Under the pieces are notes generated by a model, which was not told where the DNA came from, ran no database searches, and saw only the letters and a program-made list of their open reading frames with translations. From positions 1 to 21,415 of the IMG/VR virus record IMGVR_UViG_2778261463_000013: a stretch of 21,415 bases of DNA; one strand, 5' to 3'. Position numbers and translations under genes: made by a program. This document shows positions 8,823 to 19,920 of the stretch, one piece after another. Positions within the stretch are counted from its first letter, which is position 1. The number at the start of each line of letters is the position of its first letter. This stretch comes from a virus (lineage: Duplodnaviria; Heunggongvirae; Uroviricota; Caudoviricetes).

Positions 8823-9877
8823 TGAGCAGAAAAAATAAACAACGACGTACGAACGCCCGCGCAGCGCAGGGCAGCCTTGCGGATTCCCTGCGAAGCGACC
8901 CGACACTAAGTGCCTTCACGTTTGAAGGACCTTACCGGCTGTCAGGGGCCGACCTGCTGGACAGCATGTACTGCGCCGACAACGGGCGGTGGTTTGAAAC
9001 GCCCGTTGACTGGTACGGACTGGCACGGGCTGCCCGCCAGACGTCCTGGCACCAGTCGGCGCTCAGCTTCAAACGTAATGTGCTGCTGGGCTGCTATATT
9101 CCACATCCTCTGCTGTCCCGCCAGGAGTTCGCCGGGGTGGCGATGGACTGGTTTGTGTTCGGTAATGCCTGTCTTGAGCTGCGGCGCAACATGCTTGGCG
9201 AACCGCTGGCCCTGCGCCGGGCGCTGGCGAAATACATGCGACGTGGCAGCGATATGAAATCATGGTGGTATATACAGGAAGGACAGGAAGAGTACCGCTT
9301 TCGTGAGGGGACGATATGCCACCTGATGAATCCTGATATCAACCAGGAGATTTACGGGATGCCGGATTACCTGGGCGGCCTGCTGTCTGCCAGCCTGTCA
9401 CATTCCGCCGATATCTTCCGCAAGCTCTACTACGATAACGGCTCACACGCGGGCTGTATTGTCTACATCGGTGCGGCGCAGGTTGACCGTGAAAGCATGG
9501 AAAAACTGCGGGAAACACTGCAAAGCGCGCGTGGTGGCGGGGCGTTTAAAAATCTGCTCATCCACGCGGCGGGAGGTGGTAAGGATGGCGTACAGATTTT
9601 GCCGTTTCAGCAAATCACCGCAAAGGATGAGTTCATGAACGTCAAGGCTGCATCGCGTGATGATGTGCTGTCCGTGCACCGTGTACCGCCGCAGCTGATG
9701 GGGGCCATGCCGGGTGAGAAGGGGTCATTCGGGGATGTGGAGAAGGCAGCCCGTGTGTTTGCCATTAACGAACTGATGCCCGTCATGGAAGCAATGAAAC
9801 ACGTCAACGACTGGCTGGGCGAAGAGGTGATCCGTTTTAACCCTTACGCACTGTTAGACACCCAGCCCATATCCTGA
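8822..9877 (+). CDS. Q: Portal protein, P2 gpQ-like
   Basis: 351-aa ORF translationally coupled to P; size and synteny match P2 Q. Confidence 0.9.
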   Translation: MSRKNKQRRTNARAAQGSLADSLRSDPTLSAFTFEGPYRLSGADLLDSMYCADNGRWFETPVDWYGLARAARQTSWHQSALSFKRNVLLGCYIPHPLLSRQEFAGVAMDWFVFGNACLELRRNMLGEPLALRRALAKYMRRGSDMKSWWYIQEGQEEYRFREGTICHLMNPDINQEIYGMPDYLGGLLSASLSHSADIFRKLYYDNGSHAGCIVYIGAAQVDRESMEKLRETLQSARGGGAFKNLLIHAAGGGKDGVQILPFQQITAKDEFMNVKAASRDDVLSVHRVPPQLMGAMPGEKGSFGDVEKAARVFAINELMPVMEAMKHVNDWLGEEVIRFNPYALLDTQPIS

Positions 9878-9903
9878 CGCGCTTCGCTTGTCTGCTGCTT
9901 CGC

Positions 9904-9928
9904 CGGGGCATAAAAAATTTATGCCCCG
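9904..9928. other. Perfect palindrome CGGGGCATAAA-AAA-TTTATGCCCCG between convergent Q and the hotspot gene; no flanking U tract
   Basis: 11-bp arms, 3-nt centre, read directly; sits where a P2-family cos region would be expected (downstream of Q). Confidence 0.4.
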
Positions 9929-9943
9929 ACTCTCCAGCTCTGC

Positions 9944-10654
9944 TTAACGAAGTGCTGATGGCGCTCGCTTTTTCAGGTGATTAGCGATGTGCTTTTTCAT
10001 GTGCATAACAACATCGCCCCAGGCTTCTTCGCTGGGTTTATTGATAAATACGCGAACAGAAATATCGTCTTCCACCCGGACTCTCAGAGACACCCGTTCC
10101 GCATCTACTGAATATAATTCAAGTGCAATAACCACGCTTACCGGGTAGCTGCTGTCAGATGACTTAACCCAGGTTCGCACGGCCATGCGGAAAATATTGT
10201 CTGGTGCAGATGCGATATTGTGGACTGAAAGAGGACTAAAATCCGCCGCTGTCTTACATGGCAAGCCTGTCTCCACGTAGCGGTGCAGGTCGCCATCATC
10301 GTCTTCCCAGTACATGGATGGAAGCCCCAGCCATTCTTCATAGAAATCAATCAGCCTTGCCGCTTCATCCCGCAAAATTTGAGCTGCCTCAGCGCGTTTT
10401 TCTTCAGCTTCACGATTGATCTGGCATAAATCATTAAAGTGGCTCATGACATTATCCTCTTTTGAGTTGATGCCTGCCGCTATTCTGACTTTGCCCGGGT
10501 TCTCCTGCAAGCTGGTTATTCCTTCAGATAATTTCACAACATCTCCAACCTTGTAGCCATCATCGCCGGGCGGATGCTTACGCAACCCCGCAACTCTGAC
10601 GACATATTCTCGCTGCCTCAGTGCGATTTTGACGGCCTTATCTTTCACCCCCAT
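9944..10654 (-). CDS. Hypothetical protein (~236 aa from ATG 10654; alternative 167-aa product from internal ATG 10447), stand-alone unit in the Q-A accessory hotspot
   Basis: Long minus-strand ORF; ATG at 10654 has no clear SD, while internal ATG at 10447 is preceded by a strong AAGAGGA SD with 7-nt spacing; N-terminal ~70 aa have an AbrB/looped-hinge-like residue pattern (weak impression); no recognised homolog. Confidence 0.5.
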   Translation of the reverse strand: MGVKDKAVKIALRQREYVVRVAGLRKHPPGDDGYKVGDVVKLSEGITSLQENPGKVRIAAGINSKEDNVMSHFNDLCQINREAEEKRAEAAQILRDEAARLIDFYEEWLGLPSMYWEDDDGDLHRYVETGLPCKTAADFSPLSVHNIASAPDNIFRMAVRTWVKSSDSSYPVSVVIALELYSVDAERVSLRVRVEDDISVRVFINKPSEEAWGDVVMHMKKHIANHLKKRAPSALR

Positions 10655-10707
10655 CAAATCAAGCTTTTACGTCTTTTTTACGCTCAGCGTGAGAAATACA
10701 GCCATTC

Positions 10708-10725
10708 TGTTGTGTCGCTGCAACA
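10708..10725. promoter_or_regulatory. Dyad TGTTG-N8-CAACA (satisfies TGT-N12-ACA) resembling the late-promoter element at 2980-3003 but with a shorter spacer
   Basis: Shares TGTTGT..TCGCTG..CAACATC with the D/FI' dyad; function and orientation not established. Confidence 0.3.
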
Positions 10726-10872
10726 TCGTTCAGGGAATGCTATTTACCCCCTGAAACGCGGGCTGTTCCCCCGTCACCTGCGCGCAGAAAAAGGCCTTTT
10801 TTCGTGCACGCACGGATCCCCGACGGATCCAGACGCCACACGGGCCGGAAGGGCAAAAAGTCGTTCAAAAAA

Positions 10873-10902
10873 ATTGTGCAAATTTGTGCACTATTGTGCA
10901 TT
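10873..10902. repeat. Three direct repeats of (A/T)TTGTGCA at exact 10-bp phasing
   Basis: aTTGTGCAaa tTTGTGCAct aTTGTGCAtt read directly; helical phasing suggests an operator or protein-binding array. Confidence 0.45.
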
Positions 10903-10907
10903 GAAAT

Positions 10908-10935
10908 AAACGCCCTGGAGGAGGGCGTTTTGCTC
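10908..10935. terminator. Bidirectional intrinsic terminator after the A-linked operon
   Basis: 9-bp GC-rich stem AAACGCCCT/AGGGCGTTT with GGAGG loop, T-rich on both flanks; immediately downstream of the stop at 10938-10940. Confidence 0.6.
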
Positions 10936-10937
10936 AT

Positions 10938-11339
10938 CTATTTATAGCCTTGCCCCTTACTGGCCAGCGCCCTGATGGCAGGGCGTGCCAACACCATATT
11001 TTGGCAATGATGAATTGCCCGGCAAAATTCATCTCTACCCATTGGATGCTCAACTGGCAATGTAAAATACAGGTTCCATGCATCGCCTAAAAGTTGGGCT
11101 ATCTTTTGTTCTTCAGATGTCAGCAAGCGGTACTCCCCATCCTTGATGTAGTCACTTGTGCCATCGACCTGCTGTTCTGCAATGTGGAAAGCACCTATTG
11201 GTTTTGCTTCCAGCGATGCCAAAGCAATCCGTGCCAGTTTTTCCGCTTCTTCGGCTGGCAGTACAACGTTGCTACCAGGTCCGTATGTTTCGCGCCACTG
11301 CCTGATTGTCAGTAGTCGCTCTTTGGTTATAGTGGTCAT
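10938..11339 (-). CDS. Hypothetical protein (133 aa), last gene of the A-linked coupled string
   Basis: ATG overlaps the upstream stop (ATGA at 11336-11339); followed by a terminator. Confidence 0.55.
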   Translation of the reverse strand: MTTITKERLLTIRQWRETYGPGSNVVLPAEEAEKLARIALASLEAKPIGAFHIAEQQVDGTSDYIKDGEYRLLTSEEQKIAQLLGDAWNLYFTLPVEHPMGRDEFCRAIHHCQNMVLARPAIRALASKGQGYK

Positions 11340-11545
11340 TTGTTAATCCTCAAAACTTTATGCCCGGGCGCAAAAGCACGAGTTTTGTCTTTGCTTATTC
11401 GCCAGCCATCCTTACGCGCCTCTTTTGCACAGCCAGTCCATGACGTACCGATATATTCACCGAAGTCTGGCGTTTGATATTTACCATTTGTACACTGGCG
11501 ACAATCACAATAGAGATGCATGGTGTAACTTGCGGCAATAGCCAT
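11336..11545 (-). CDS. Hypothetical small Cys-rich (zinc-ribbon-like) protein, 69 aa
   Basis: AAGGAG SD 6-7 nt upstream of the ATG at 11545; YCDCRQC...GC Cys pattern. Confidence 0.55.
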   Translation of the reverse strand: MAIAASYTMHLYCDCRQCTNGKYQTPDFGEYIGTSWTGCAKEARKDGWRISKDKTRAFAPGHKVLRINK

Positions 11546-11546
11546 A

Positions 11547-11861
11547 TCAGTCTCCTTTGATGCCAGTGTTTACAACCTGACAAGCCTCTTTGAGCACCCA
11601 GTCAACAGCGTCTTGCCATGCTCCGGTTTCGACTGGCGGATTCTCACGCTTTACCAGTTCATAGAAACGTACTGCTCTAACCAGTCCATCTGACGGTTTT
11701 GCCTGTAGTGCAGCCTGAGCTATGCGGTATACCTGGAGCATACAGGCGTCGTTGATATCCATTCCGAATGGAATATCTGATGACTGAGATTCCACATCTT
11801 CCAGCCTGGCAATTTCTTTACGTAAGAAGCCTTTCAGTTCCTGCTTCTGTTTCCTGTTCAT
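11547..11861 (-). CDS. Hypothetical protein (104 aa)
   Basis: ATG at 11861 preceded by GAAGGA SD; the track start at 11876 is TTG; 1-nt gap to the next gene. Confidence 0.5.
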   Translation of the reverse strand: MNRKQKQELKGFLRKEIARLEDVESQSSDIPFGMDINDACMLQVYRIAQAALQAKPSDGLVRAVRFYELVKRENPPVETGAWQDAVDWVLKEACQVVNTGIKGD

Positions 11862-11872
11862 ATATTTTTCCT

Positions 11873-12067
11873 TCAAAGTTCGGTTCGCTGACAGGGTTTC
11901 TCTTTACGGCAGACAATGACGCTTCCTTTGCTCGAGTCGGTGATTGTTACCGTGCCGTCATCACACTGGACAATGACAACGGTGTTGCTCTTTTTCGCTA
12001 CGCAGTTCGGCGTGGCTGATTGTGCGAATGGCGCGAAAAACAGCAGAAAAAGTAATATTCTGCTCAC
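11873..12067 (-). CDS. Hypothetical small secreted protein (64 aa): predicted Sec signal peptide plus ~43-aa mature part with 4 Cys
   Basis: GTG at 12067 preceded by GGGAGGA SD (8-nt spacing) and overlapping the upstream stop (GTGA); N-terminus SRILLFLLFFAPFAQSA is signal-peptide-like; the track's ATG at 12244 would overlap the upstream gene out of frame. Confidence 0.4.
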   Translation of the reverse strand: MSRILLFLLFFAPFAQSATPNCVAKKSNTVVIVQCDDGTVTITDSSKGSVIVCRKEKPCQRTEL

Positions 12068-12495
12068 TGTTGTTTCCTCCCGTTCTGTGCTGGTCTGGCG
12101 AATGAATTGCGTTGTGGTGAAAAGACCATTCGCGCCAGCGCGGCCTTGTGATTGACTGTGTTCAGTGTTCTGGCCAGTCCGCCGTTGTGCCTGCGTGTCC
12201 GCTCTTCGTGATATCTCTGCATGATTTTCCCGGCAGGCGTGCACGGCTCCGGTTCCTCCGGCGAACGGCGCGGACGAATGACGACAGTCCAGCTATGGCT
12301 CTCGCTGCCCGGCCGCCTGTTGAGTATGTCGGCGATGGTGGTCTCCGTGGTGCGATCGGGGCTGACTATCGTGATTTCCAGCTCGTCGCCCGGTTGTGGC
12401 CTTGTGGCAGGCCTGAACAGTGTCAGCACCGGCATACGCTGGCGCATGATGGCCTCAAACTGTGGGCGCTGCATGGTGCAGCAAAATCGCGTCAT
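12064..12495 (-). CDS. Hypothetical protein (143 aa), translationally coupled to A
   Basis: ATG overlaps the A stop codon (ATGA at 12492-12495); Pro/Arg-rich; no recognised homolog. Confidence 0.45.
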   Translation of the reverse strand: MTRFCCTMQRPQFEAIMRQRMPVLTLFRPATRPQPGDELEITIVSPDRTTETTIADILNRRPGSESHSWTVVIRPRRSPEEPEPCTPAGKIMQRYHEERTRRHNGGLARTLNTVNHKAALARMVFSPQRNSFARPAQNGRKQQ

Positions 12496-15002
12496 GCTCC
12501 CGCCTCCACTGGCTGCTCTGTGATGATGTGACGGGCTGACTCATCCCAGTACGCTGTTCCCCCGTTATCCAGACGCACACGGGCACCGTTACGCACGGAG
12601 ATGATGGCCGCGTCAGGCAACTGCACACCCAGCGCATCAAGTTCGCGGGCGATTTGCGTGTCCGTCGCGGTATCCGCAGGCACGACAATCCCCACCCTTA
12701 CAGGGGTGTCAGATGCCGGTGTGGTGTCGTTTTGTCCGGTTTTTGCGCCCGACGGCTGATTTTTAATCTGATTACGCAGTTTTCTCCGATCGCCCCTGCT
12801 TAACGTATTCAGCCAGCTTTCCAGGTTCTCTTCGGGAAGCGTCAGTCGTCCGGGGTCCTGCCTGTTTTCTGGTCCGTGATTGTCTGTTTTTTCATCCCGG
12901 GGACAGTTATTGCCACGAGTCCAAGGGGCGACGGGGTCGCCCTGAAGGTCAAAACCCTCGCCCGTGCGGTTGTCTGGTGTTGTTTCTTTTTTAACCAGTT
13001 TCCACTCGTCCGGATGGGTGCATATGGTGTACCGCTCTCCGAGCGACGGGGCGCAGATTCCGTAGATACGTTGAGGGAATTCACCGTAGTCGTTGGCTTC
13101 GTCTGCGGTTTCGTATGCGGTGCGGACCAGATACTGGTTGCGCGGAATGAGCACACCACCCTGTTTCATGATGTAGGTGGCAAAACATCCCACATCTGCG
13201 GCAGCCATAATGGCGTCAATATCGTCATGATCGAGGTGCTTCGGTGATGCCGGGTTGCGCTCCATCTGGCTTGCAAGGCGGCGGAGTTCACGCCATACCT
13301 GGCGGGGCGGAATGCCGAAAAACTGGAACTGACGGATGCGGTGAAGGCTTGCCCAGGCAATGGCGTTCTCCACGGTTTCCGCCATGGTTTTCCCGGATTC
13401 CTCATCAACGTAAGGTTTTCCGGTTTTCGGATCATTGTTGTGGAAAGCGCTGGCGTCCAGGTTCTTACCGATATAGGTTGCGATATAGCTTGCCGGTGTG
13501 CCTTTTTCCGGGTCTATCTTCTCGCATTTAAAGCGCGGTGAAATATCGTCCCCCAGTTCGTGGCGATCTGATTTAATTGCTGCTTCGCGCATAATTTCGA
13601 TGATGCGCTCTGCGTTCTCCGGGGAAGTGAATACCAGCATATGCCAGTGTGGCGTGCCGTCATGGTGTGGCTCAGCGGTTCGCACGCCGTACCAGCCCAG
13701 CCCCTCTTTTTTTATTTTTTTTCTTACGGCTGCGAAGAAGTCGTAAACCAGATAATCACTGGCATCTCGTACTGTGGCACCGTTGTATTTCGGGTTCAGG
13801 CTGCCGTTCTCGTTCACGCTGTGAAAGCGGGAAGGGGTGGTTACTGTGATGAAGAATGCGACGTCAGCCCGTAATTCGGCCACCATCTCCATCCCTCTGA
13901 CGCAGACCATCATTTCATTGCGGCGGTTGCGTGGATTACCCAGGCCAGCCCAGTACACGTCCTCCAGACTCAGGCGCTCGCCGTCTTCGTTTTCAATATC
14001 CCAGCTTTTGAGAAAGTCACGGGTGCGCTGGCGCTTCTCGCGGAACTCCAGTAGTGACTCATGGCTGATATAGGGGGATTGTTTACGTGACACTCTGCCG
14101 GCGGCGCGCAGTAACTCCTCCCGCCAGAGATCGGCGACGTGGCGTAACTGGTTGTTCCACCAGGTCGCGCAGGTGATGCGCAGTACCGCACCCGGAACCC
14201 GTTCAGGGTCCGGCGGTGTGCGTCGGTTGTGCCTGATTTCGAGTTCCGGCCAGTATGGCGGGACCACGCCCAGAATTAAGGCTGTGCGTGCCACCTTCTG
14301 GTAGGCCAGCAGCCAGATAACCGGGCTGTCATTATCCTTGCCTGTCCGTTCAAGAACTTCATCACATATGCGTTCAAATTCTGCGGCGAATGCCTGGGCT
14401 GTCAGTGTGGCGATGCGCTGGATTTCGTCACGGGTGAGTTGCGGCAGTGTGAGCAGTTCTTCAAGGCGATGGCGCACGACGGTGGTTTTGAATGCCGGCG
14501 TTGCAAAGCGGTCGTTAACCCTTTCAATACGTTTCAGGCGCGCACGCAGTCCACGGCGAACGAAATTATCGGCCACGTATGCGCTGTTGTTTTTTACACC
14601 TTCACTGCGGGCACTTTGCTGTTTCCGGTTCAGTCGTGCCAGATCACGGATCAACACACTGGCAAGAAACGAGGGCAGGGTGCGAAGTTCGGCTATCGCC
14701 TCCGATACCGCCGTTGGCGGATTTTCGCGTCTGTGTCGTGCCAGCTTATCCAGCCTTATCTGCCGCTCTTCGTCCCGGTGAAGGTGTGAATTAATTTGCT
14801 TACCTTTGTCCGTGGTTGTCAGGAAGGCCACGGTTTCTTCATCCAGCCGGGCCTCAGTGCGAATGTCTTCGGTGAGGTAGTCACGGATTGCCCGTTGTAA
14901 TGCGGTTGGCTTCTGCGGTAATGCTCTGCCGAATGTCTCAGGATCAATAACCGGCAGCGGGGCGTTCCACGGGTACGCCAGGTGCGTGTGGTGATGGCTC
15001 AT
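12492..15002 (-). CDS. A: Replication initiation endonuclease (rolling-circle HUH family), P2 gpA-like
   Basis: 836-aa ORF; HUH motif region ...HHDGTPHWHMLVF...; GGGGAG SD 8 nt upstream of the ATG at 15002. Confidence 0.9.
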   Translation of the reverse strand: MSHHHTHLAYPWNAPLPVIDPETFGRALPQKPTALQRAIRDYLTEDIRTEARLDEETVAFLTTTDKGKQINSHLHRDEERQIRLDKLARHRRENPPTAVSEAIAELRTLPSFLASVLIRDLARLNRKQQSARSEGVKNNSAYVADNFVRRGLRARLKRIERVNDRFATPAFKTTVVRHRLEELLTLPQLTRDEIQRIATLTAQAFAAEFERICDEVLERTGKDNDSPVIWLLAYQKVARTALILGVVPPYWPELEIRHNRRTPPDPERVPGAVLRITCATWWNNQLRHVADLWREELLRAAGRVSRKQSPYISHESLLEFREKRQRTRDFLKSWDIENEDGERLSLEDVYWAGLGNPRNRRNEMMVCVRGMEMVAELRADVAFFITVTTPSRFHSVNENGSLNPKYNGATVRDASDYLVYDFFAAVRKKIKKEGLGWYGVRTAEPHHDGTPHWHMLVFTSPENAERIIEIMREAAIKSDRHELGDDISPRFKCEKIDPEKGTPASYIATYIGKNLDASAFHNNDPKTGKPYVDEESGKTMAETVENAIAWASLHRIRQFQFFGIPPRQVWRELRRLASQMERNPASPKHLDHDDIDAIMAAADVGCFATYIMKQGGVLIPRNQYLVRTAYETADEANDYGEFPQRIYGICAPSLGERYTICTHPDEWKLVKKETTPDNRTGEGFDLQGDPVAPWTRGNNCPRDEKTDNHGPENRQDPGRLTLPEENLESWLNTLSRGDRRKLRNQIKNQPSGAKTGQNDTTPASDTPVRVGIVVPADTATDTQIARELDALGVQLPDAAIISVRNGARVRLDNGGTAYWDESARHIITEQPVEAGA

Positions 15003-15007
15003 TCCGC

Positions 15008-15421
15008 TTACTCCCCTGCTGTTGCCTTCTCAAATGCAGCCCGGTACAGCACAAGAAGGCGCTGGTATTCAGCGATAAAGTCTTCTGCTGTTTTAATCCC
15101 TTTCACGACCACGCTGTGGGTGGTCATTTCCAGAACGAGCACCATTTCTGACGATGACCAGCTGATAACGCTGCTGTCGCACCCGTTGATGTGGAACAGG
15201 CCCAGCACCATGCTGTGGTTCTGGTCTCTGACATCCACGCGGTAACGGTCATCAACGGTGAAGGAAAAATTCCCGTATGTGGTGGCGCTGCTGGCGGCCT
15301 GTTTACAGGCGCGGCGGTAATAGTCATGCAGGTCATTGAGACGGGAAGCGAGGCGTGGATCCACCGCCCACATCCAGTTAAAAAAATCCTGAATATCTGA
15401 AAGTCCCTTAACGCTCTTCAT
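15008..15421 (-). CDS. Hypothetical early-region protein (137 aa) immediately upstream of A
   Basis: GGAGG SD 6 nt upstream of the ATG at 15421; position equivalent to P2 orf80-83. Confidence 0.6.
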   Translation of the reverse strand: MKSVKGLSDIQDFFNWMWAVDPRLASRLNDLHDYYRRACKQAASSATTYGNFSFTVDDRYRVDVRDQNHSMVLGLFHINGCDSSVISWSSSEMVLVLEMTTHSVVVKGIKTAEDFIAEYQRLLVLYRAAFEKATAGE

Positions 15422-15489
15422 GAGAACCTCCGGAAACGGACGTGCGGAAGCCTCCCGCGTACGGGGGCGGGATGGCTCCGGGATGTTGA

Positions 15490-15717
15490 TTAGTGGTGGT
15501 AGTGCTGGTTAATGAGGTCCTGCAGCTTGCGCAGGTCATCCGCCAGGTAGCTGAATACAGCGGCGGAATACATGTTTGACAGTGCGTGGCTGCGCTCATG
15601 CAGCATATTGATGTGCATGATATGCGCGACGCGGAATGCGCGGGAAAGTCTGCGGTTGATTTCAGTCTGGATGTGACGACGCGCAGCGTATGCGCGCTGT
15701 TGTTTGCGGTTTGCCAT
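15490..15717 (-). CDS. Hypothetical small basic protein (75 aa)
   Basis: AGAGG SD about 10 nt upstream of the ATG at 15717; overlapping 207-aa track ORF in another frame judged spurious. Confidence 0.55.
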   Translation of the reverse strand: MANRKQQRAYAARRHIQTEINRRLSRAFRVAHIMHINMLHERSHALSNMYSAAVFSYLADDLRKLQDLINQHYHH

Positions 15718-15724
15718 GGTGTTT

Positions 15725-15960
15725 GGCCTCTTCGTTTGTGAGTTTTTGGATACTCACCATCCAGAGGTTGCAATTCTGGGTGGCGAGACGTACAGGGTTG
15801 CAACCACCGGCAAACGAAGAAACCGGCCCGACCGAAGTCGGCCCCGTACGCCCCACCATAATTCTGGTGCGAAAAAGACGTGGCGATACGGTACGCACAA
15901 AAAAACCGCTGGCGCGGTTGTGCGCTTCGTTTGTCAGCGGGGGTTGCAATCCCGGCACCC
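15725..15960. promoter_or_regulatory. Repeat-rich non-coding region: three GGTTGCAA(Y) sites, one a perfect 10-bp palindrome GGTTGCAACC, plus three copies of CTTCGTTTG
   Basis: GGTTGCAA at 15766, 15796 and 15942; CTTCGTTTG at 15730 and 15925 (direct) and 15811-15819 (inverted); no convincing ORF. Confidence 0.4.
15899..15925 (-). terminator. Possible minus-strand intrinsic terminator downstream of the multi-HTH gene
   Basis: On the minus strand, stem AACCGC/GCGGTT with 4-nt loop followed by T7; stem is short so strength is uncertain. Confidence 0.35.
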
Positions 15961-16040
15961 GTTTTATGAGGTGCAGCGGAAATGTAACCTGACTGATTGC
16001 GGCATGGCAAGCGGTTTTTTTGTGTGTGCATAGTGGTTAC

Positions 16041-16595
16041 TCAGTCCGGTAGCAGTTCGCAAAGCACGGTGTCAGCGGCGGTATATCGTGCGTAAAGCCG
16101 GGCGAGGACCCATCTTTTAAGGGATATCCCGGTCGTGTCCCGGATGTACTTTCTGATTTCGCTGAATGTCATCCCCTGTTCATCGCGCAGTTCAGTTACC
16201 AACTCCACCAGGTGATCGCTGTATCTGGCTCTGTGGTGGAGTTCCCCGTATTTCCTGAACCGGTACCCTCTTTTTCTCAGGTTCAGTCCCACCGTGGATG
16301 TCGAGCGCCCCAGTTCATTCGCGAGTTCCCGGATGGTTTTTGTGTGGCGATTCCTGATGAGCGTGTTGAGTTCTTTTGTATTCAGGGGGGGGTGTTTGGT
16401 GTGGATAACCCCCTGAGAGAGCAAAAGACGGATGCGGCTTCGTATTGCTGGCCCGGTTCTCTGAAAGTGTTTTGTCAGTTCTGGTACGGTGTGGGAGGGG
16501 TATAAACCGACCAGTAGAGCATCTTCCTGTTGTGTCCAGGCTCTGACATGCTTCGGTGGTACACCTGATACACCCATAGGTTTAAGTGCGGGCAT
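16041..16595 (-). CDS. Predicted DNA-binding protein with three HTH-like segments (184 aa)
   Basis: ATG at 16595 with GGAGA SD; segments ...TVPELTKHFQRTGPAIRSRIR..., ...TIRELANELGRSTSTVGLNLRKRG..., ...TFSEIRKYIRDTTGISLKRWV... fit HTH patterns, reminiscent of paired HTH domains of transposase N-termini or GcrA/Myb-like regulators. Confidence 0.55.
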   Translation of the reverse strand: MPALKPMGVSGVPPKHVRAWTQQEDALLVGLYPSHTVPELTKHFQRTGPAIRSRIRLLLSQGVIHTKHPPLNTKELNTLIRNRHTKTIRELANELGRSTSTVGLNLRKRGYRFRKYGELHHRARYSDHLVELVTELRDEQGMTFSEIRKYIRDTTGISLKRWVLARLYARYTAADTVLCELLPD

Positions 16596-16829
16596 AGTTG
16601 TTCTCCGTTGTTCTGTTTTGTGTCGGGGTAATGGTCCGGTTTTTTCGCCTTCAACCGGAAAAGAAGGGCGTGTTAGCATTGATGAATCCGCCGTTCAGTG
16701 GATCTGGCGGACACTTTGTTCAACACGCCCGGGGGTAAAGATGTCTGGCTGCAAAAATTCCACGAGCCAGGTTACCCTGCACTCTGCGCTGATTAGGGGC
16801 AGAGCGATGACGATGAGGGATAAAACACC

Positions 16830-17312
16830 ATGCAAAACAACCAACGTAAAAAATCGAGAGAACGGGATGAGGTCATGTTCCGTCTCTGGTACAGCTACTG
16901 GCTGGAGCGCATCGCGGCGGTGTTCAATCGTCGCCTTGATGCGATCATCAACATTTTGATCCTTGCGGCGGGTGCGTTCATCGTAGCCGGCTGGCATTTC
17001 GGCTGGGTGCTGGGGGCAGTGGTGGTGGTTCTCGGAGCCTGTAATTTCATATGTCGTTTCGGGCAACGTGCGCAGGCGGCGAGTGAGCATGCCCATCGCT
17101 ACAATGAGTTGATTACCAAAAGCGCCCTCCTCAGTACGGAAGCTCTGCTGGCACGCCTTCCAGAGCTTGAGATGCATGACTCTCCTGTCCTGGAATGCAT
17201 GGAAAATGTGGCGTACAACAAAGCCTGTATGTCTCTGAATATCAGTCATCGTGAATCTCTCTCTTTCGCTGAAAAGATGATGGCTGCCATTACGATCGGT
17301 TTGTCCCGATAA
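16830..17312 (+). CDS. Hypothetical membrane protein (160 aa), lone plus-strand gene inside the minus-strand early region
   Basis: GAGGGA SD upstream of the ATG at 16830; hydrophobic stretch IINILILAAGAFIVAGWHFGWVLGAVVVVLGA; overlapping minus-strand 211-aa ORF judged spurious. Confidence 0.5.
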   Translation: MQNNQRKKSRERDEVMFRLWYSYWLERIAAVFNRRLDAIINILILAAGAFIVAGWHFGWVLGAVVVVLGACNFICRFGQRAQAASEHAHRYNELITKSALLSTEALLARLPELEMHDSPVLECMENVAYNKACMSLNISHRESLSFAEKMMAAITIGLSR

Positions 17313-17351
17313 GTGCCCTGCGTGTGTCATCTGACGCTCGCCATGTTCCCG

Positions 17352-17564
17352 TCAGTCGTTCGGGTTTATGACGTAATCCACGACGTTTTCCACGCGGCGG
17401 CGTAATTCCCTGTGTATCTGGCCTGGTGTTGCTGGTTCGCCCGGTTGCCCCAGGCCTGCCACAAAATCGTCGATTTCACTCATAAGCAGGTTGCGCATTA
17501 CGGCGATATGGTGACGCGCCTCTTTGCCTGGTCTGCGTGCGTTGGTATCGTGTTTGCTGCTCAT
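17352..17564 (-). CDS. Hypothetical protein (70 aa)
   Basis: ATG at 17564 overlaps the upstream stop (ATGA); GAGG SD upstream. Confidence 0.45.
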   Translation of the reverse strand: MSSKHDTNARRPGKEARHHIAVMRNLLMSEIDDFVAGLGQPGEPATPGQIHRELRRRVENVVDYVINPND

Positions 17565-17770
17565 GTTCTTACCTCGCTTATTATCTCGAGTTCGCGCCAT
17601 GACTCTGTCAGGACGGTTATCTGTGACCCGTCCGTCAGGTGGACGTAAATCAGTTCGTCACCTGCCGGGCATCGGGTGGTGGTGGCTATGACACTGCTTT
17701 CCACTTCGTATTCCATCCCGGATGTATCGGTAAAAAGCGTTTTATTGCGTCTTCTCAGAATTGCAGTCAT
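17561..17770 (-). CDS. Hypothetical protein (69 aa)
   Basis: GAGGG SD 8 nt upstream of the ATG at 17770. Confidence 0.5.
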   Translation of the reverse strand: MTAILRRRNKTLFTDTSGMEYEVESSVIATTTRCPAGDELIYVHLTDGSQITVLTESWRELEIISEVRT

Positions 17771-17780
17771 GGTGTGGCCC

Positions 17781-18074
17781 TCAGTGCATTCGTGATGACG
17801 TGCCAGCCTCAGTGCTCTGAAGCTGACGTCTGAGGTTTTTCAGCTCCTGAGCCAGCCTGATGTTTTCTTCCCGGAACTCAGAAAGCGCCTGCACGGCAAG
17901 GGCGATGGCTATCGCTTCTGTCTGGTGCATCATGGCTAATAATATTTCTTCCGGATGTTCCATTAATTCACGGCTTAGTTTGTTTTTTTTCTTAATTAAT
18001 TTGTTTGTGCCTTCGATTATTTTGTTGACCTGTTCACTGTTATCAATGATTCGGTTTTTTTTATTATTAAGCAT
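17781..18074 (-). CDS. Hypothetical protein (97 aa), Lys/Asn-rich N-terminus, coiled-coil-like, in a markedly AT-rich segment
   Basis: Strong AAGGAGA SD 8 nt upstream of the ATG at 18074; local AT-richness at 17940-18070. Confidence 0.55.
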   Translation of the reverse strand: MLNNKKNRIIDNSEQVNKIIEGTNKLIKKKNKLSRELMEHPEEILLAMMHQTEAIAIALAVQALSEFREENIRLAQELKNLRRQLQSTEAGTSSRMH

Positions 18075-18154
18075 TCCTGATTTCTCCTTTTTGAGCGGGT
18101 CAACCCCTCCGCGTGAGCGGATGTTTCTGGTTGTTTCTGGTGTTAAACGCCTGT

Positions 18155-18280
18155 TTATTTACGGCGCTTATCGCCAGTAAATAACGATTCAATGGTGTTA
18201 ATGCTGTTAATTACCCGCATAATCCCCACAGCGTAAATAATGGCAAGGATAAGAATTAACCATGACATAAATACGCTCAT
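18155..18280 (-). CDS. Small hydrophobic peptide (41 aa), single predicted TM helix with basic C-terminal tail, translationally coupled to the upstream gene
   Basis: ATG at 18278-18280 overlaps the stop of the 80-aa gene (ATGA); translation MSVFMSWLILILAIIYAVGIMRVINSINTIESLFTGDKRRK; below the ORF-track size cut-off. Confidence 0.35.
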   Translation of the reverse strand: MSVFMSWLILILAIIYAVGIMRVINSINTIESLFTGDKRRK

Positions 18281-18519
18281 GCTTCCTCCTGAATTACAAA
18301 GGGGGTTATTACGTTTCCTTCAGACAGGTCTTTATTAATGGCCTGTAATTCCGTCAGAGCTTCATTATCTCCGGAACCAAAGGCGCAACAGGTCAGGCCC
18401 TTGATTGCTGTAGTCAGTGCTGCAAGTGAAACAGCGTCACCGTTAGTGCCACGGCTTGTAAGTCCGTAATGGTAATTCTGAAGCGCGTGGTTAATGAGTT
18501 CTTTATAGGCTCTTTTCAT
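18277..18519 (-). CDS. Hypothetical protein (80 aa)
   Basis: AGAGG SD 8 nt upstream of the ATG at 18519. Confidence 0.5.
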   Translation of the reverse strand: MKRAYKELINHALQNYHYGLTSRGTNGDAVSLAALTTAIKGLTCCAFGSGDNEALTELQAINKDLSEGNVITPFVIQEEA

Positions 18520-18557
18520 CTTGCTGCCTCTTCTGTCTTATTAAGACTCCTTTTGCC

Positions 18558-18896
18558 TTAGTAGTCGGTATGCTGAAAGCTGCGCCCCTCGATTAAGCGG
18601 TCGGCAGTTCGCAAGGCTTCGTGCAGTGTGAAATCCTGTCCGAACTGATTGTCGCCGCTGCTCAGTGCAAAAATGCGGTTTCCGGTAAACGGATTGCGGT
18701 GGCATCTGTGGATCACGAGTCCGGCCTGCTCAATCAGCCAGGTGTGTTGACCAGTCTGTTTTACAGCATGACCGCCCGGTGTTGCGTGTGTCTCGCTCAG
18801 GCTGTAGCGGGAGTTACTACGTGATGCACTGGTAGCGAAACGGTTAGCGTGACGTTCAGCACCATTACGAAAGCGTGAATTACGTTGCTGTTTCAT
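18558..18896 (-). CDS. Hypothetical protein (112 aa)
   Basis: ORF in operon orientation; weak SD. Confidence 0.45.
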   Translation of the reverse strand: MKQQRNSRFRNGAERHANRFATSASRSNSRYSLSETHATPGGHAVKQTGQHTWLIEQAGLVIHRCHRNPFTGNRIFALSSGDNQFGQDFTLHEALRTADRLIEGRSFQHTDY

Positions 18897-18920
18897 GTTA
18901 AAGACTCTGTACAGATTTAA

Positions 18921-19004
18921 TTATTCCGGCATAGCGGCGAACTCAAAATATTTGCGATTAAATCGCATCGCATTGTGTTCACGTTTTGCGGACTGCTGGT
19001 TCAT
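18921..19004 (-). CDS. Possible 27-aa basic peptide with strong SD
   Basis: GGAGG SD 9 nt upstream of the ATG at 19004; translation MNQQSAKREHNAMRFNRKYFEFAAMPE; very short, could be chance. Confidence 0.2.
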   Translation of the reverse strand: MNQQSAKREHNAMRFNRKYFEFAAMPE

Positions 19005-19147
19005 TTTCGTTTGCCTCCGCACATGAGAATTACGCCGCTTAAGAGGTAACCGAAGTTAATTGATAGTATTACAATTAACATAAGGTCCAATTTGTCCATG
19101 CCACACATAATTACCCTCATTGCAGTAGTTGTGGTTTATCAGGTTTC

Positions 19148-19354
19148 TCACCCGATAAACCAGATAACAAACGCTATAAACATCGCCCCAATAGCTGCCG
19201 GGAAAAGTCCTTTGGTATAAGCGGCGATATATTCAATGCTGAGTTCAATAAAGCGTTCTTCATGTCCCGTTAACTTACGAAACAAATAGATCGCTATTAC
19301 GCCTATCTCAATAAAAACAAGTGTCAGAATGGCGCTGATGATATTGCTGGTCAT
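19148..19354 (-). CDS. Small membrane protein (68 aa, two predicted TM segments)
   Basis: Hydrophobic segments IISAILTLVFIEIGVIAIYLF and AAIGAMFIAFVIWFIG; begins 8 nt after the Cox-like stop. Confidence 0.45.
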   Translation of the reverse strand: MTSNIISAILTLVFIEIGVIAIYLFRKLTGHEERFIELSIEYIAAYTKGLFPAAIGAMFIAFVIWFIG

Positions 19355-19362
19355 TTTCGTGT

Positions 19363-19884
19363 TTAGCCGGGCTGGTTGTTTTTGAGTTGCTCCAGTTTTG
19401 AAACTCTGGGGGAGTAAACCTGCTTACCTTTAACGGTCTGGCAGTCCTCCTTGTTTGCCGGTGAAAACTTTCTTTTCTTGCGGTCGTACGTCCAGTAGCT
19501 TTTCCAGTTGTGCCACTCTGGCGGTTCGCACTCCAGTAGTTCGTCGGCTAGTTCGTCCCAGGCTTTGGCGTTAAACCACCATGTACCGTCTGACTTTTCA
19601 TCTTCGGGATTTGAGCGCGTTTTGTGACCCGGCATCTGCCCGCGCTGAATGGCGGCGCGTAGCGCAGATTTTGTTACCCCCAGATAGGCAGCCCCTTTTT
19701 CCAGTGACACAAGTCCTGCGACTGGGCCGTCCAGTCGTAGGGTTGCGCCCTTTTTGTAGGACGGTCTGGTTTTGGTTTCCAGGTGTTCGTTGTCGTTGGC
19801 AGCTTCAATGAATTCATTGTCCGCGCCATCATCCTGAACCGGTTGAGCGCCAGATAACTCTTTGTCGGCAATAATCTCCCGCAT
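19363..19884 (-). CDS. Cox/AlpA-like excisionase-family HTH protein with extended termini (173 aa), divergent from C
   Basis: AGAGGA SD 8 nt upstream of the ATG at 19884; central region ...AYLGVTKSALRAAIQRGQMPG...GTWWFNAKAWDEL resembles the P2 Cox / AlpA HTH pattern; position as in P2. Confidence 0.55.
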   Translation of the reverse strand: MREIIADKELSGAQPVQDDGADNEFIEAANDNEHLETKTRPSYKKGATLRLDGPVAGLVSLEKGAAYLGVTKSALRAAIQRGQMPGHKTRSNPEDEKSDGTWWFNAKAWDELADELLECEPPEWHNWKSYWTYDRKKRKFSPANKEDCQTVKGKQVYSPRVSKLEQLKNNQPG

Positions 19885-19920
19885 TTGTTATCCTCTTGCA
19901 TTGGTGCGCTTGTTGCGCCT

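Follow-up and report, generated by a model that had tools for sequence, protein, structure and literature searches.

What is a run of five small genes doing directly behind the replication gene of a P2-like prophage, and does it amount to an unusual system? We examined this question in a 21,415-nucleotide (nt) stretch of viral DNA (IMG/VR record IMGVR_UViG_2778261463_000013, positions 1 to 21,415; hereafter the window), in which gene A, encoding a replication endonuclease, is followed on the minus strand by five short open reading frames (ORFs). We refer to these as g143, g64, g104, g69, and g133, after the lengths of their products in amino acids (aa). An earlier note on this DNA had considered such a string unusual next to a replication gene. 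We conclude that the block is nothing out of the ordinary: it is one instance of a known hotspot, is composed of known phage gene families, and has been catalogued before. We consider it likely that the block represents the promoter-distal end of the early (replication) operon and the A-proximal part of the gpA-gpQ hotspot, combining the inherited g143 with exchanged accessory genes. Two points are new here. In structure models, g143 is equivalent to P2 orf91 at the level of the fold, and g64 could be assigned to a newly delineated small family of predicted exported, Cys-stapled mini-proteins.

Gene order behind A and its hotspot setting

The whole 21.4-kb window was 100% identical to prophages in 22 complete Escherichia coli genomes. 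The copy in SCU-115 is a P2-family prophage beside rraA, menA, and hslU that carries cox, integrase, A, portal, terminase, capsid, and tail genes in the table of the Prokaryotic Genome Annotation Pipeline (PGAP). The head genes and the surroundings of the terminator were closest to those of Escherichia phage P88 (Peduoviridae, Xuanwuvirus), and the gene A product was 51% identical to P88 gpA over 742 aa. We identify the window as an E. coli prophage of the P88-like type (Peduoviridae). Gene A, the block, and the hairpin behind it are arranged as follows (SD, Shine-Dalgarno sequence).

12492-15002, minus strand: gene A, 836 aa, rolling-circle replication endonuclease (PF05840, E = 2.3e-104; phrog_91; PGAP, "replication endonuclease")
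12064-12495, minus strand: g143, 143 aa; ATGA overlap of the TGA stop of A and the ATG of g143
11873-12067, minus strand: g64, 64 aa, GTG start; GTGA overlap with g143
11547-11861, minus strand: g104, 104 aa; 11-nt gap after g64, SD immediately past the g64 stop codon
11336-11545, minus strand: g69, 69 aa; 1-nt gap after g104
10938-11339, minus strand: g133, 133 aa; ATGA overlap with g69
10908-10930, minus strand: putative intrinsic-terminator hairpin at the operon end; 9-bp stem AAACGCCCU / AGGGCGUUU, 5-nt loop CCUCC, then AUUUCAA

The earlier description of five small, co-oriented, and tightly joined genes behind A was confirmed. All five ORFs were intact, the junctions were read directly from the sequence, and PGAP called the first four genes; the RefSeq/PGAP coordinates for g143, g64, g104, and g69 were exactly the same as those above, GTG start included. 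Each of the five genes had an SD 6 to 8 nt before its start codon, with anti-SD duplex energies of -5.7 to -10.3 kcal/mol, the best being that of the GTG-start g64 (SD, GGGAGGA). The ratio of nonsynonymous to synonymous substitution rates (dN/dS) ranged from 0.08 to 0.41 across four of the five genes (g143, 0.25 to 0.41; g64, 0.39; g104, 0.14 to 0.28; g69, 0.08 to 0.13); the values for g104, g69, and g64 are well below 1, indicating that these are real genes. The G+C content at third codon positions was 0.69 for g143 and 0.61 for A, and the next four genes had values of 0.40 to 0.55. Given that most same-strand neighbors throughout the prophage overlap or nearly abut in the PGAP table, the junctions within the block do not stand above the genome background.

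Homology searches, as proposed in the earlier note, were run for all five proteins. PHROG and DNA relatives were detected, as described below, while none of the five had a match above threshold in Pfam or NCBIfam, and PDB sequence searches returned no match. An Rfam scan (E ≤ 1) over positions 9800 to 12700 found nothing, and a repeat scan within the block gave nothing meaningful.

The block is located between the replication endonuclease A and portal Q genes, which matches the definition of the gpA-gpQ hotspot, for which Rousset et al. 2022 (PMC9122126) reported 1,650 arrangements of genes in E. coli. Table S5A of that study lists the present protein set (WP_000196517, WP_000086827, WP_001080487, WP_000951718, and two more) as "hypothetical x6," and NZ_CP033635, which is given there for this set, matched the window at 100% identity over the full query. 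The content of the hotspot varied among related prophages, both in those that share A and g143 (contigs L004 to L009) and in P88, PhiR44_2, and CREC-591. The arrangement is thus neither unusual nor new: it occupies a known hotspot, it has been tabulated exactly, and P88-like prophages have similar strings and junctions. This result mostly closes the lead, in that the tight string is a normal early-operon tail in a well-studied hotspot and not a new system.

The end of the string at a terminator, as the earlier note had proposed, is probable. The 9-bp hairpin at 10908-10930 folds well (61-nt context, -17.5 kcal/mol; z = -3.0). It is kept in P88 and CREC-591, and in PhiR44_2 its position is taken by another hairpin of the canonical terminator type. 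Its U-tract is broken (UUUAUUUCAA), and the hairpin was absent from the list of a consensus scan because the T-run is short. The promoter/terminator scan found no promoter-like or terminator-like sites on the minus strand inside the block. The best sigma-70-like match of the region (11306-11333, TTGTCA-16 nt-TATAGT, 10/12) lies on the plus strand, antisense at the g133/g69 junction, and is probably due to chance.

On this arrangement, the five genes would be cotranscribed with A from the early promoter, and transcription would stop at the 10908-10930 hairpin. Being read with A, they would be expressed after infection or induction and not in the repressed lysogen. The ATGA, GTGA, and 1-nt junctions may let terminating ribosomes reinitiate, so that the mRNA would stay covered by ribosomes and the output of the small genes would be tied to the translation of A. 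Stop and start codons overlap or abut, with the SD inside the upstream gene, as expected for coupled genes, and the phage 186 record provides a precedent for coupling: translation of orf84 is needed for translation of A. While g143 would have been inherited together with A, the other four would be dispensable early accessory genes that are exchanged in part at a hinge-coding sequence (RIAxAxLxAKP). We speculate that these cargo genes modulate host physiology, the lysis-lysogeny decision, or phage competition and do not act in DNA replication itself.

An inherited partner of A and a mosaic of exchanged genes

The first gene of the block travels with A. Members of the g143 family were seen in E. 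coli only (62 to 99% identity), and in every context read, g143 starts 4 nt ahead of the point where an A gene for a protein of ~840 aa reaches its stop codon. The genes past A and g143 vary: an Ead_Ea22 protein is encoded in L004 to L007, and MarR, TumE, and HVO_A0114 genes are present in L008 and L009. The predicted structure of g143 consists of an ASCH/DUF3850-like beta-barrel (residues 1 to 75) and a long basic helix (residues 87 to 124); the modeled barrel, with one helix, was superposable on solved ASCH structures. P2 Orf91 is annotated as DUF3850 and has a sequence match to 3iuw (E = 5e-11), and P2 orf91 overlaps the stop codon of P2 A by ATGA (4 nt), as g143 does here. The two proteins had no detectable sequence similarity (hhalign probability, 0.2%). 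Pfam searches, including PF12961 (DUF3850) and PF04266 (ASCH), gave no g143 match at E ≤ 0.1, and the g143 region RQRxPxLTL aligned only loosely, by eye, to the ASCH motif GxKxxExR. A tblastn search against sequenced phages found no match to g143. A g143 hidden within the longer A of P88 was ruled out, as that comparison gave chance matches only.

On the basis of the models, we regard g143 as the fold-level counterpart of P2 orf91 and as a conserved partner of this type of A, inherited with it as the lineage's version of orf91. In the models, g143 combines a PUA-like domain of the DUF3850/ASCH type and a basic helical tail. The modeled fold suggests that g143 probably binds nucleic acid. The fold of Orf91, together with the same ATGA overlap, means that P2 does have an equivalent of the first gene of the block. 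The earlier statement that P2 has a different gene set here is accordingly correct for most of the genes (P2 carries tin and old, on the other strand) and incorrect for g143. For the same reason, the orthologs at this position in P2-like phages that the earlier note had named as grounds for abandoning its view were found in part, i.e., as the fold-level match of g143 to P2 orf91. Since g143 and Orf91 share a fold without detectable sequence similarity, a PUA-like protein joined to the rolling-circle initiator is possibly a conserved feature of P2-family phages.

The physical joining of the genes to A, the presence of g143 with A in every context, and its fold typical of nucleic-acid binders would fit a role of all five products as accessory factors in replication, acting together with A; the coupling would then be accounted for. 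However, the same A and g143 are followed by quite different genes in other prophages, the four downstream genes are missing behind A in P88 and P2, and g64 is predicted to be exported. The prophage of E. coli GF60 (L015, 6221-8528) carries an IS21-family insertion element (istA, istB) between g64 and g104, with the 5' end of g104 truncated and the prophage otherwise identical. This insertion, tolerated in a prophage, indicates that the block is not needed to maintain the prophage. We consider a replication role for all five genes highly improbable.

The four genes after g143 had relatives of another kind. Overall, their DNA was 83 to 97% identical to that of P88-like phages and of the exo-xis region of Shiga toxin (Stx)/lambdoid phages. 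Local BLAST of the window DNA, segment by segment, identified the following nearest relatives.

11855-12056: g64; P88-like prophage contig L010, 83% DNA identity
11547-11873: g104; P88 and PhiR44_2, 91 to 92% DNA identity
11320-11692: g69 and the 3' half of g104; lambdoid phage 606R7, 89% DNA identity
11200-11558: g69 and the 5' part of g133; Stx2 phage 86, 93.6% DNA identity

The matching segment of Stx2 phage 86 lies in the exo-xis region, beside DUF551 and ead/Ea22-like genes, and the g69/g133 match of 606R7 adjoins an Ea22 gene. Pieces of the block were present in a further 185 phage records, including those of Stx phages, phiV10, D6, and RCS47. In the P88-like prophage CREC-591, a trio (g104-g69-gX) follows A-ParM-StbB-ClpX-zinc-finger genes with the same types of junctions. 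Judging from these sequence comparisons, g64, g104, g69, and g133 are lower-GC mosaic cargo that has been exchanged horizontally.

Two of the cargo proteins are themselves modular. The g104 protein (matches to phrog_26213 and phrog_660) has an N-terminal module ending at the hinge RIAQAALQAKP, followed by a 48-aa C-terminal module. Its DNA was 91 to 92% identical to a gene that P88, PhiR44_2, and CREC-591 carry downstream of their ClpX-type zinc-finger gene, and in lambdoid phage 606R7, its C-terminal module stands behind a different N-terminus. The g133 protein is a chimera whose PHROG matches are split by region. Residues 1 to 72, including the hinge RIALASLEAKP, resemble the N-termini of DUF551/EaA-type lambdoid proteins (92 to 94% identity by tblastn), and this module was also found in P7 by a protein search; residues 73 to 133 form a phrog_13916 domain, of which residues 73 to 123 were 45% identical to sequences of Pseudomonas phages (tblastn). 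Thus, g104 and g133 share the hinge RIAxAxLxAKP, and their N- and C-terminal modules are recombined otherwise elsewhere. Neither protein matched Pfam Ead_Ea22 (PF13935) at E ≤ 0.1, and BLASTP against a neighboring PF13935 protein (L004, 163 aa) gave an E value of 2.5.

The chimeric makeup of g133 from unrelated modules raises the possibility that part of the block, chiefly g133, is nonfunctional recombination debris. PGAP labels g133 a partial pseudogene ("incomplete, missing C-terminus"), and the searches revealed full-length relatives in the identical prophages only. Against this, the ORF of 133 codons is uninterrupted and preceded by an SD, the phrog_13916 profile is covered in its entirety by the C-terminal 62 aa (E = 5e-28), and the other four genes have dN/dS values well below 1. 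We therefore consider debris quite improbable.

Between these two modular genes lies g69, which the earlier note had called zinc-ribbon-like. The protein matched phrog_926 (E = 6.6e-37), and its relatives formed 47 clusters in Escherichia, Salmonella, Shigella, Kosakonia, and Pantoea. At the DNA level, g69 was 89 to 97% identical to lambdoid and Stx phages, in which the homolog lies directly upstream of genes with a g133-type N-terminal module, some of them annotated as Ea22. Across the family, C13, C15, and C18 (CxCxxC) are invariant, and H62 is nearly so, while several members have T or V in place of C39. No match was found between g69 and the Pfam zinc-finger families or PDB chains, or between the g69 family profile and PDB, and a Pfam scan of every family member gave only a chance VirK match (E of ~0.2). 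A classical zinc ribbon was ruled out on three grounds: paired CxxC knuckles are absent, C39 is variable, and there is no Pfam/PDB match. The earlier label therefore does not fit, with only CxCxxC and one His conserved and no two-knuckle pattern; the conserved residues suggest that a Cys3-His metal site is possible.

Several points weigh against the view that the block is an early-operon tail of one inherited gene and four exchanged ones. Cotranscription, coupling, and silence in the prophage were all deduced from sequence scans, the U-tract of the putative terminator is weak on the minus strand, and a simple scanner missed the hairpin. PGAP treats g133 as a pseudogene, and no diverged full-length relative for a selection test was found outside the identical prophages. 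The link between g143 and Orf91 is by fold only, with a model built from a shallow alignment; of five g143 models, two had a predicted local distance difference test score (pLDDT) of ~80 and three had a score of ~60.

The predicted exported protein g64

The earlier note had assigned to the g64 product a predicted Sec signal peptide and four Cys, and both assignments stood up to closer analysis.

12017-12067, minus strand: predicted Sec signal peptide of g64, residues 1 to 17; MSR, then ILLFLLFFAPF (11-residue hydrophobic core), then AQS/A (the slash marks the predicted cleavage site)

According to the hydropathy profile, the leader has the features of a Sec signal, i.e., a positive n-region, an h-region within 7 to 15 residues, and an AXA-type c-region. 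The mature part would comprise 47 aa (A18 to L64), rather than the ~43 aa given previously, and contains four Cys (C22, C35, C53, and C59). No lipobox, L-[AS]-[GA]-C, was present in g64, and the first Cys lies 5 residues past the predicted cleavage site; a bacterial lipoprotein was ruled out on the absence of a lipobox.

A word-index search identified three relatives of g64, and a full HMMER scan identified eleven, eight of which were small proteins of 66 to 90 aa. Every relative with an intact N-terminus had a hydrophobic leader and an A/V-x-A/S site before the mature part. The family motif is PNC..(I/V)xQC(D/N)DGTVT..C..C, and the four Cys were retained in nearly all members, down to 30 to 40% identity. 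Judging from these sequences, g64 is a member of a small protein family characterized by a signal peptide and four conserved Cys. Structure prediction, proposed earlier for the 64-aa product, gave a confident model for residues 21 to 64 (pLDDT of ~96), a five-strand beta-meander that places C22 and C35 on paired strands and has a loop closed by C53 and C59. The strand register of this model points to C22-C35 and C53-C59 as likely disulfides. The protein would be exported by Sec, cleaved after AQS, and folded in the periplasm as a disulfide-stapled beta-meander.

The relatives of g64 were located in the gene strings behind A of P88-like prophages, in jumbo phages of Erwinia, and on a 109-kb phage-like contig with ribonucleotide reductase. 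Their presence in virulent phages makes a role in lytic growth more likely than lysogenic conversion, and we suggest that g64 most probably acts at the envelope during lytic growth. A bolder proposal is that g64 is the first member of a previously undescribed family of mini-proteins of ~45 residues that are encoded by phages, exported by Sec, and folded as a two-disulfide beta-meander, present in temperate P2-like and virulent jumbo phages and acting in the periplasm in lytic growth, e.g., by superinfection exclusion or by blocking an envelope function. We offer this proposal tentatively, as it is rather unlikely to hold in full; predicted to be exported and rich in Cys, g64 is a cheap candidate for a function test.

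A different role would be protection of the lysogen, with the block or part of it, above all g64, serving as antiphage or superinfection-exclusion cargo in the manner of tin, old, or small envelope exclusion proteins. Several known exclusion proteins are exported, and the predicted export of g64 resembles them in this respect. The gpA-gpQ hotspot is rich in defense systems, and ~15 to 32% of the function-unknown proteins in P2 are predicted to be antiviral (PMC13586616). However, a PADLOC search gave no match at E ≤ 0.01 for any of six proteins (the only listed match had 12 bits and an E value of 0.016), and all five proteins are small and lack enzymatic domains. The genes are joined to A on the same strand, no separate promoter was predicted for them, and they should therefore be silent in a repressed lysogen; P2 tin and old, in contrast, have their own opposite-strand transcript. 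The relatives of g64 in virulent jumbo phages also speak against lysogen protection, which we regard as unlikely.

The early-operon placement would also suit a set of counterdefense or host-takeover genes, e.g., inhibitors of host or rival-phage systems, encoded by the four downstream genes. The small size of the proteins, their fast exchange, and their occurrence in unrelated phage types are consistent with this idea. On a food-metagenome contig (L018, 166-2282), a remote g64 relative (P0074) is encoded three genes downstream of a gene with Tad2-like and Sequestin (antidefense sponge) domains. This neighborhood counts as a hint in the same direction, although it comes from a single contig, and no match to a characterized antidefense protein was found, with no dedicated antidefense library having been searched. 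A counterdefense function is possible, if doubtful. Lysogen-expressed defense cargo, a replication accessory set, and recombination debris are each a weaker explanation of the block than cargo of the early operon.

Flanking DNA and comparison with known phages

Beyond the block, the following features flank it on either side.

10874-10900, minus strand: three TGCACAA repeats with 10-nt spacing, directly past the putative operon terminator; the three make up a second hairpin, with a T7 run behind it
10876-10891: the second hairpin with its T7 run, called a terminator-like site by the scanner
10524-10952: noncoding DNA, presumably containing the cos region
9944-10657, minus strand: adjoining 237-aa ORF, probably shorter in truth
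15008-19900: early operon (matching L001, 16209-21070)

The three TGCACAA copies are the only ones within the 21.4-kb window, and the repeat stretch is invariant across four phages (the window, P88, PhiR44_2, and CREC-591). The repeats look like a phased protein-binding site and are possibly linked to cos or packaging. The noncoding DNA was 86 to 87% identical to that of P88 and PhiR44_2, even though the genes on both sides differ; the P2 cos sequence was not found in the window. In the 237-aa ORF, phrog_5091 spans residues 70 to 236 only, an internal ATG at 10447 has an SD (AGAGGA), and the PGAP start differs between genomes; the relatives in L008 and L009 (67% DNA identity) encode 167 aa. 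This gene lies at the same position as phage 186 Orf97, to which it showed no similarity. The early operon contained no recognizable P2 gene B. It encodes a "derepression protein" (PF25738 in the matching gene of relatives) and a DNA-binding protein, and one opposite-strand gene is embedded among the early genes.

Flanking genes and a high turnover of content are shared by the block with the gpA-gpQ (tin/old) hotspot of P2-like phages (PMC9122126; Moura de Sousa et al. 2026, PMC13586616). It differs from P2 itself in orientation: tin and old form a separately transcribed opposite-strand cassette, whereas the five genes here read in the direction of A as an operon tail. The likeness to P2 lies in orf91, which immediately follows P2 gene A as g143 follows A here. 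Orf91 has 109 aa, in comparison with the 143 aa of g143, which carries the basic helical tail in addition.

P88, PhiR44_2, and related prophages share the head genes and the terminator region with the window (86 to 96% DNA identity). Strings of the P88 and PhiR44_2 type carry the g104 homolog, and relatives of g64 occur in such strings. In contrast, P88-type phages have a 940-aa A (51% identical), and ParM-StbB-ClpX-zinc-finger genes follow it where the window has g143 and g64.

The closest parallel to the remaining cargo is the lambdoid exo-xis region, whose characterized genes shift the lysis-lysogeny balance (PMC8614690, PMC7093339). The DNA of g69 and the 5' part of g133 was 93 to 97% identical to this region, where g69 also overlaps the following gene by 4 nt. 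Proteins encoded there have the same modular design as g104 and g133, neither of which resembles lambda Ea22 itself. The operon differs, being pL in lambdoid phages and a P2-type early operon here. The block shows how one set of small accessory genes moves among phages of the P2-like, lambdoid/Stx, and P1/P7-like types and recombines at a conserved hinge.

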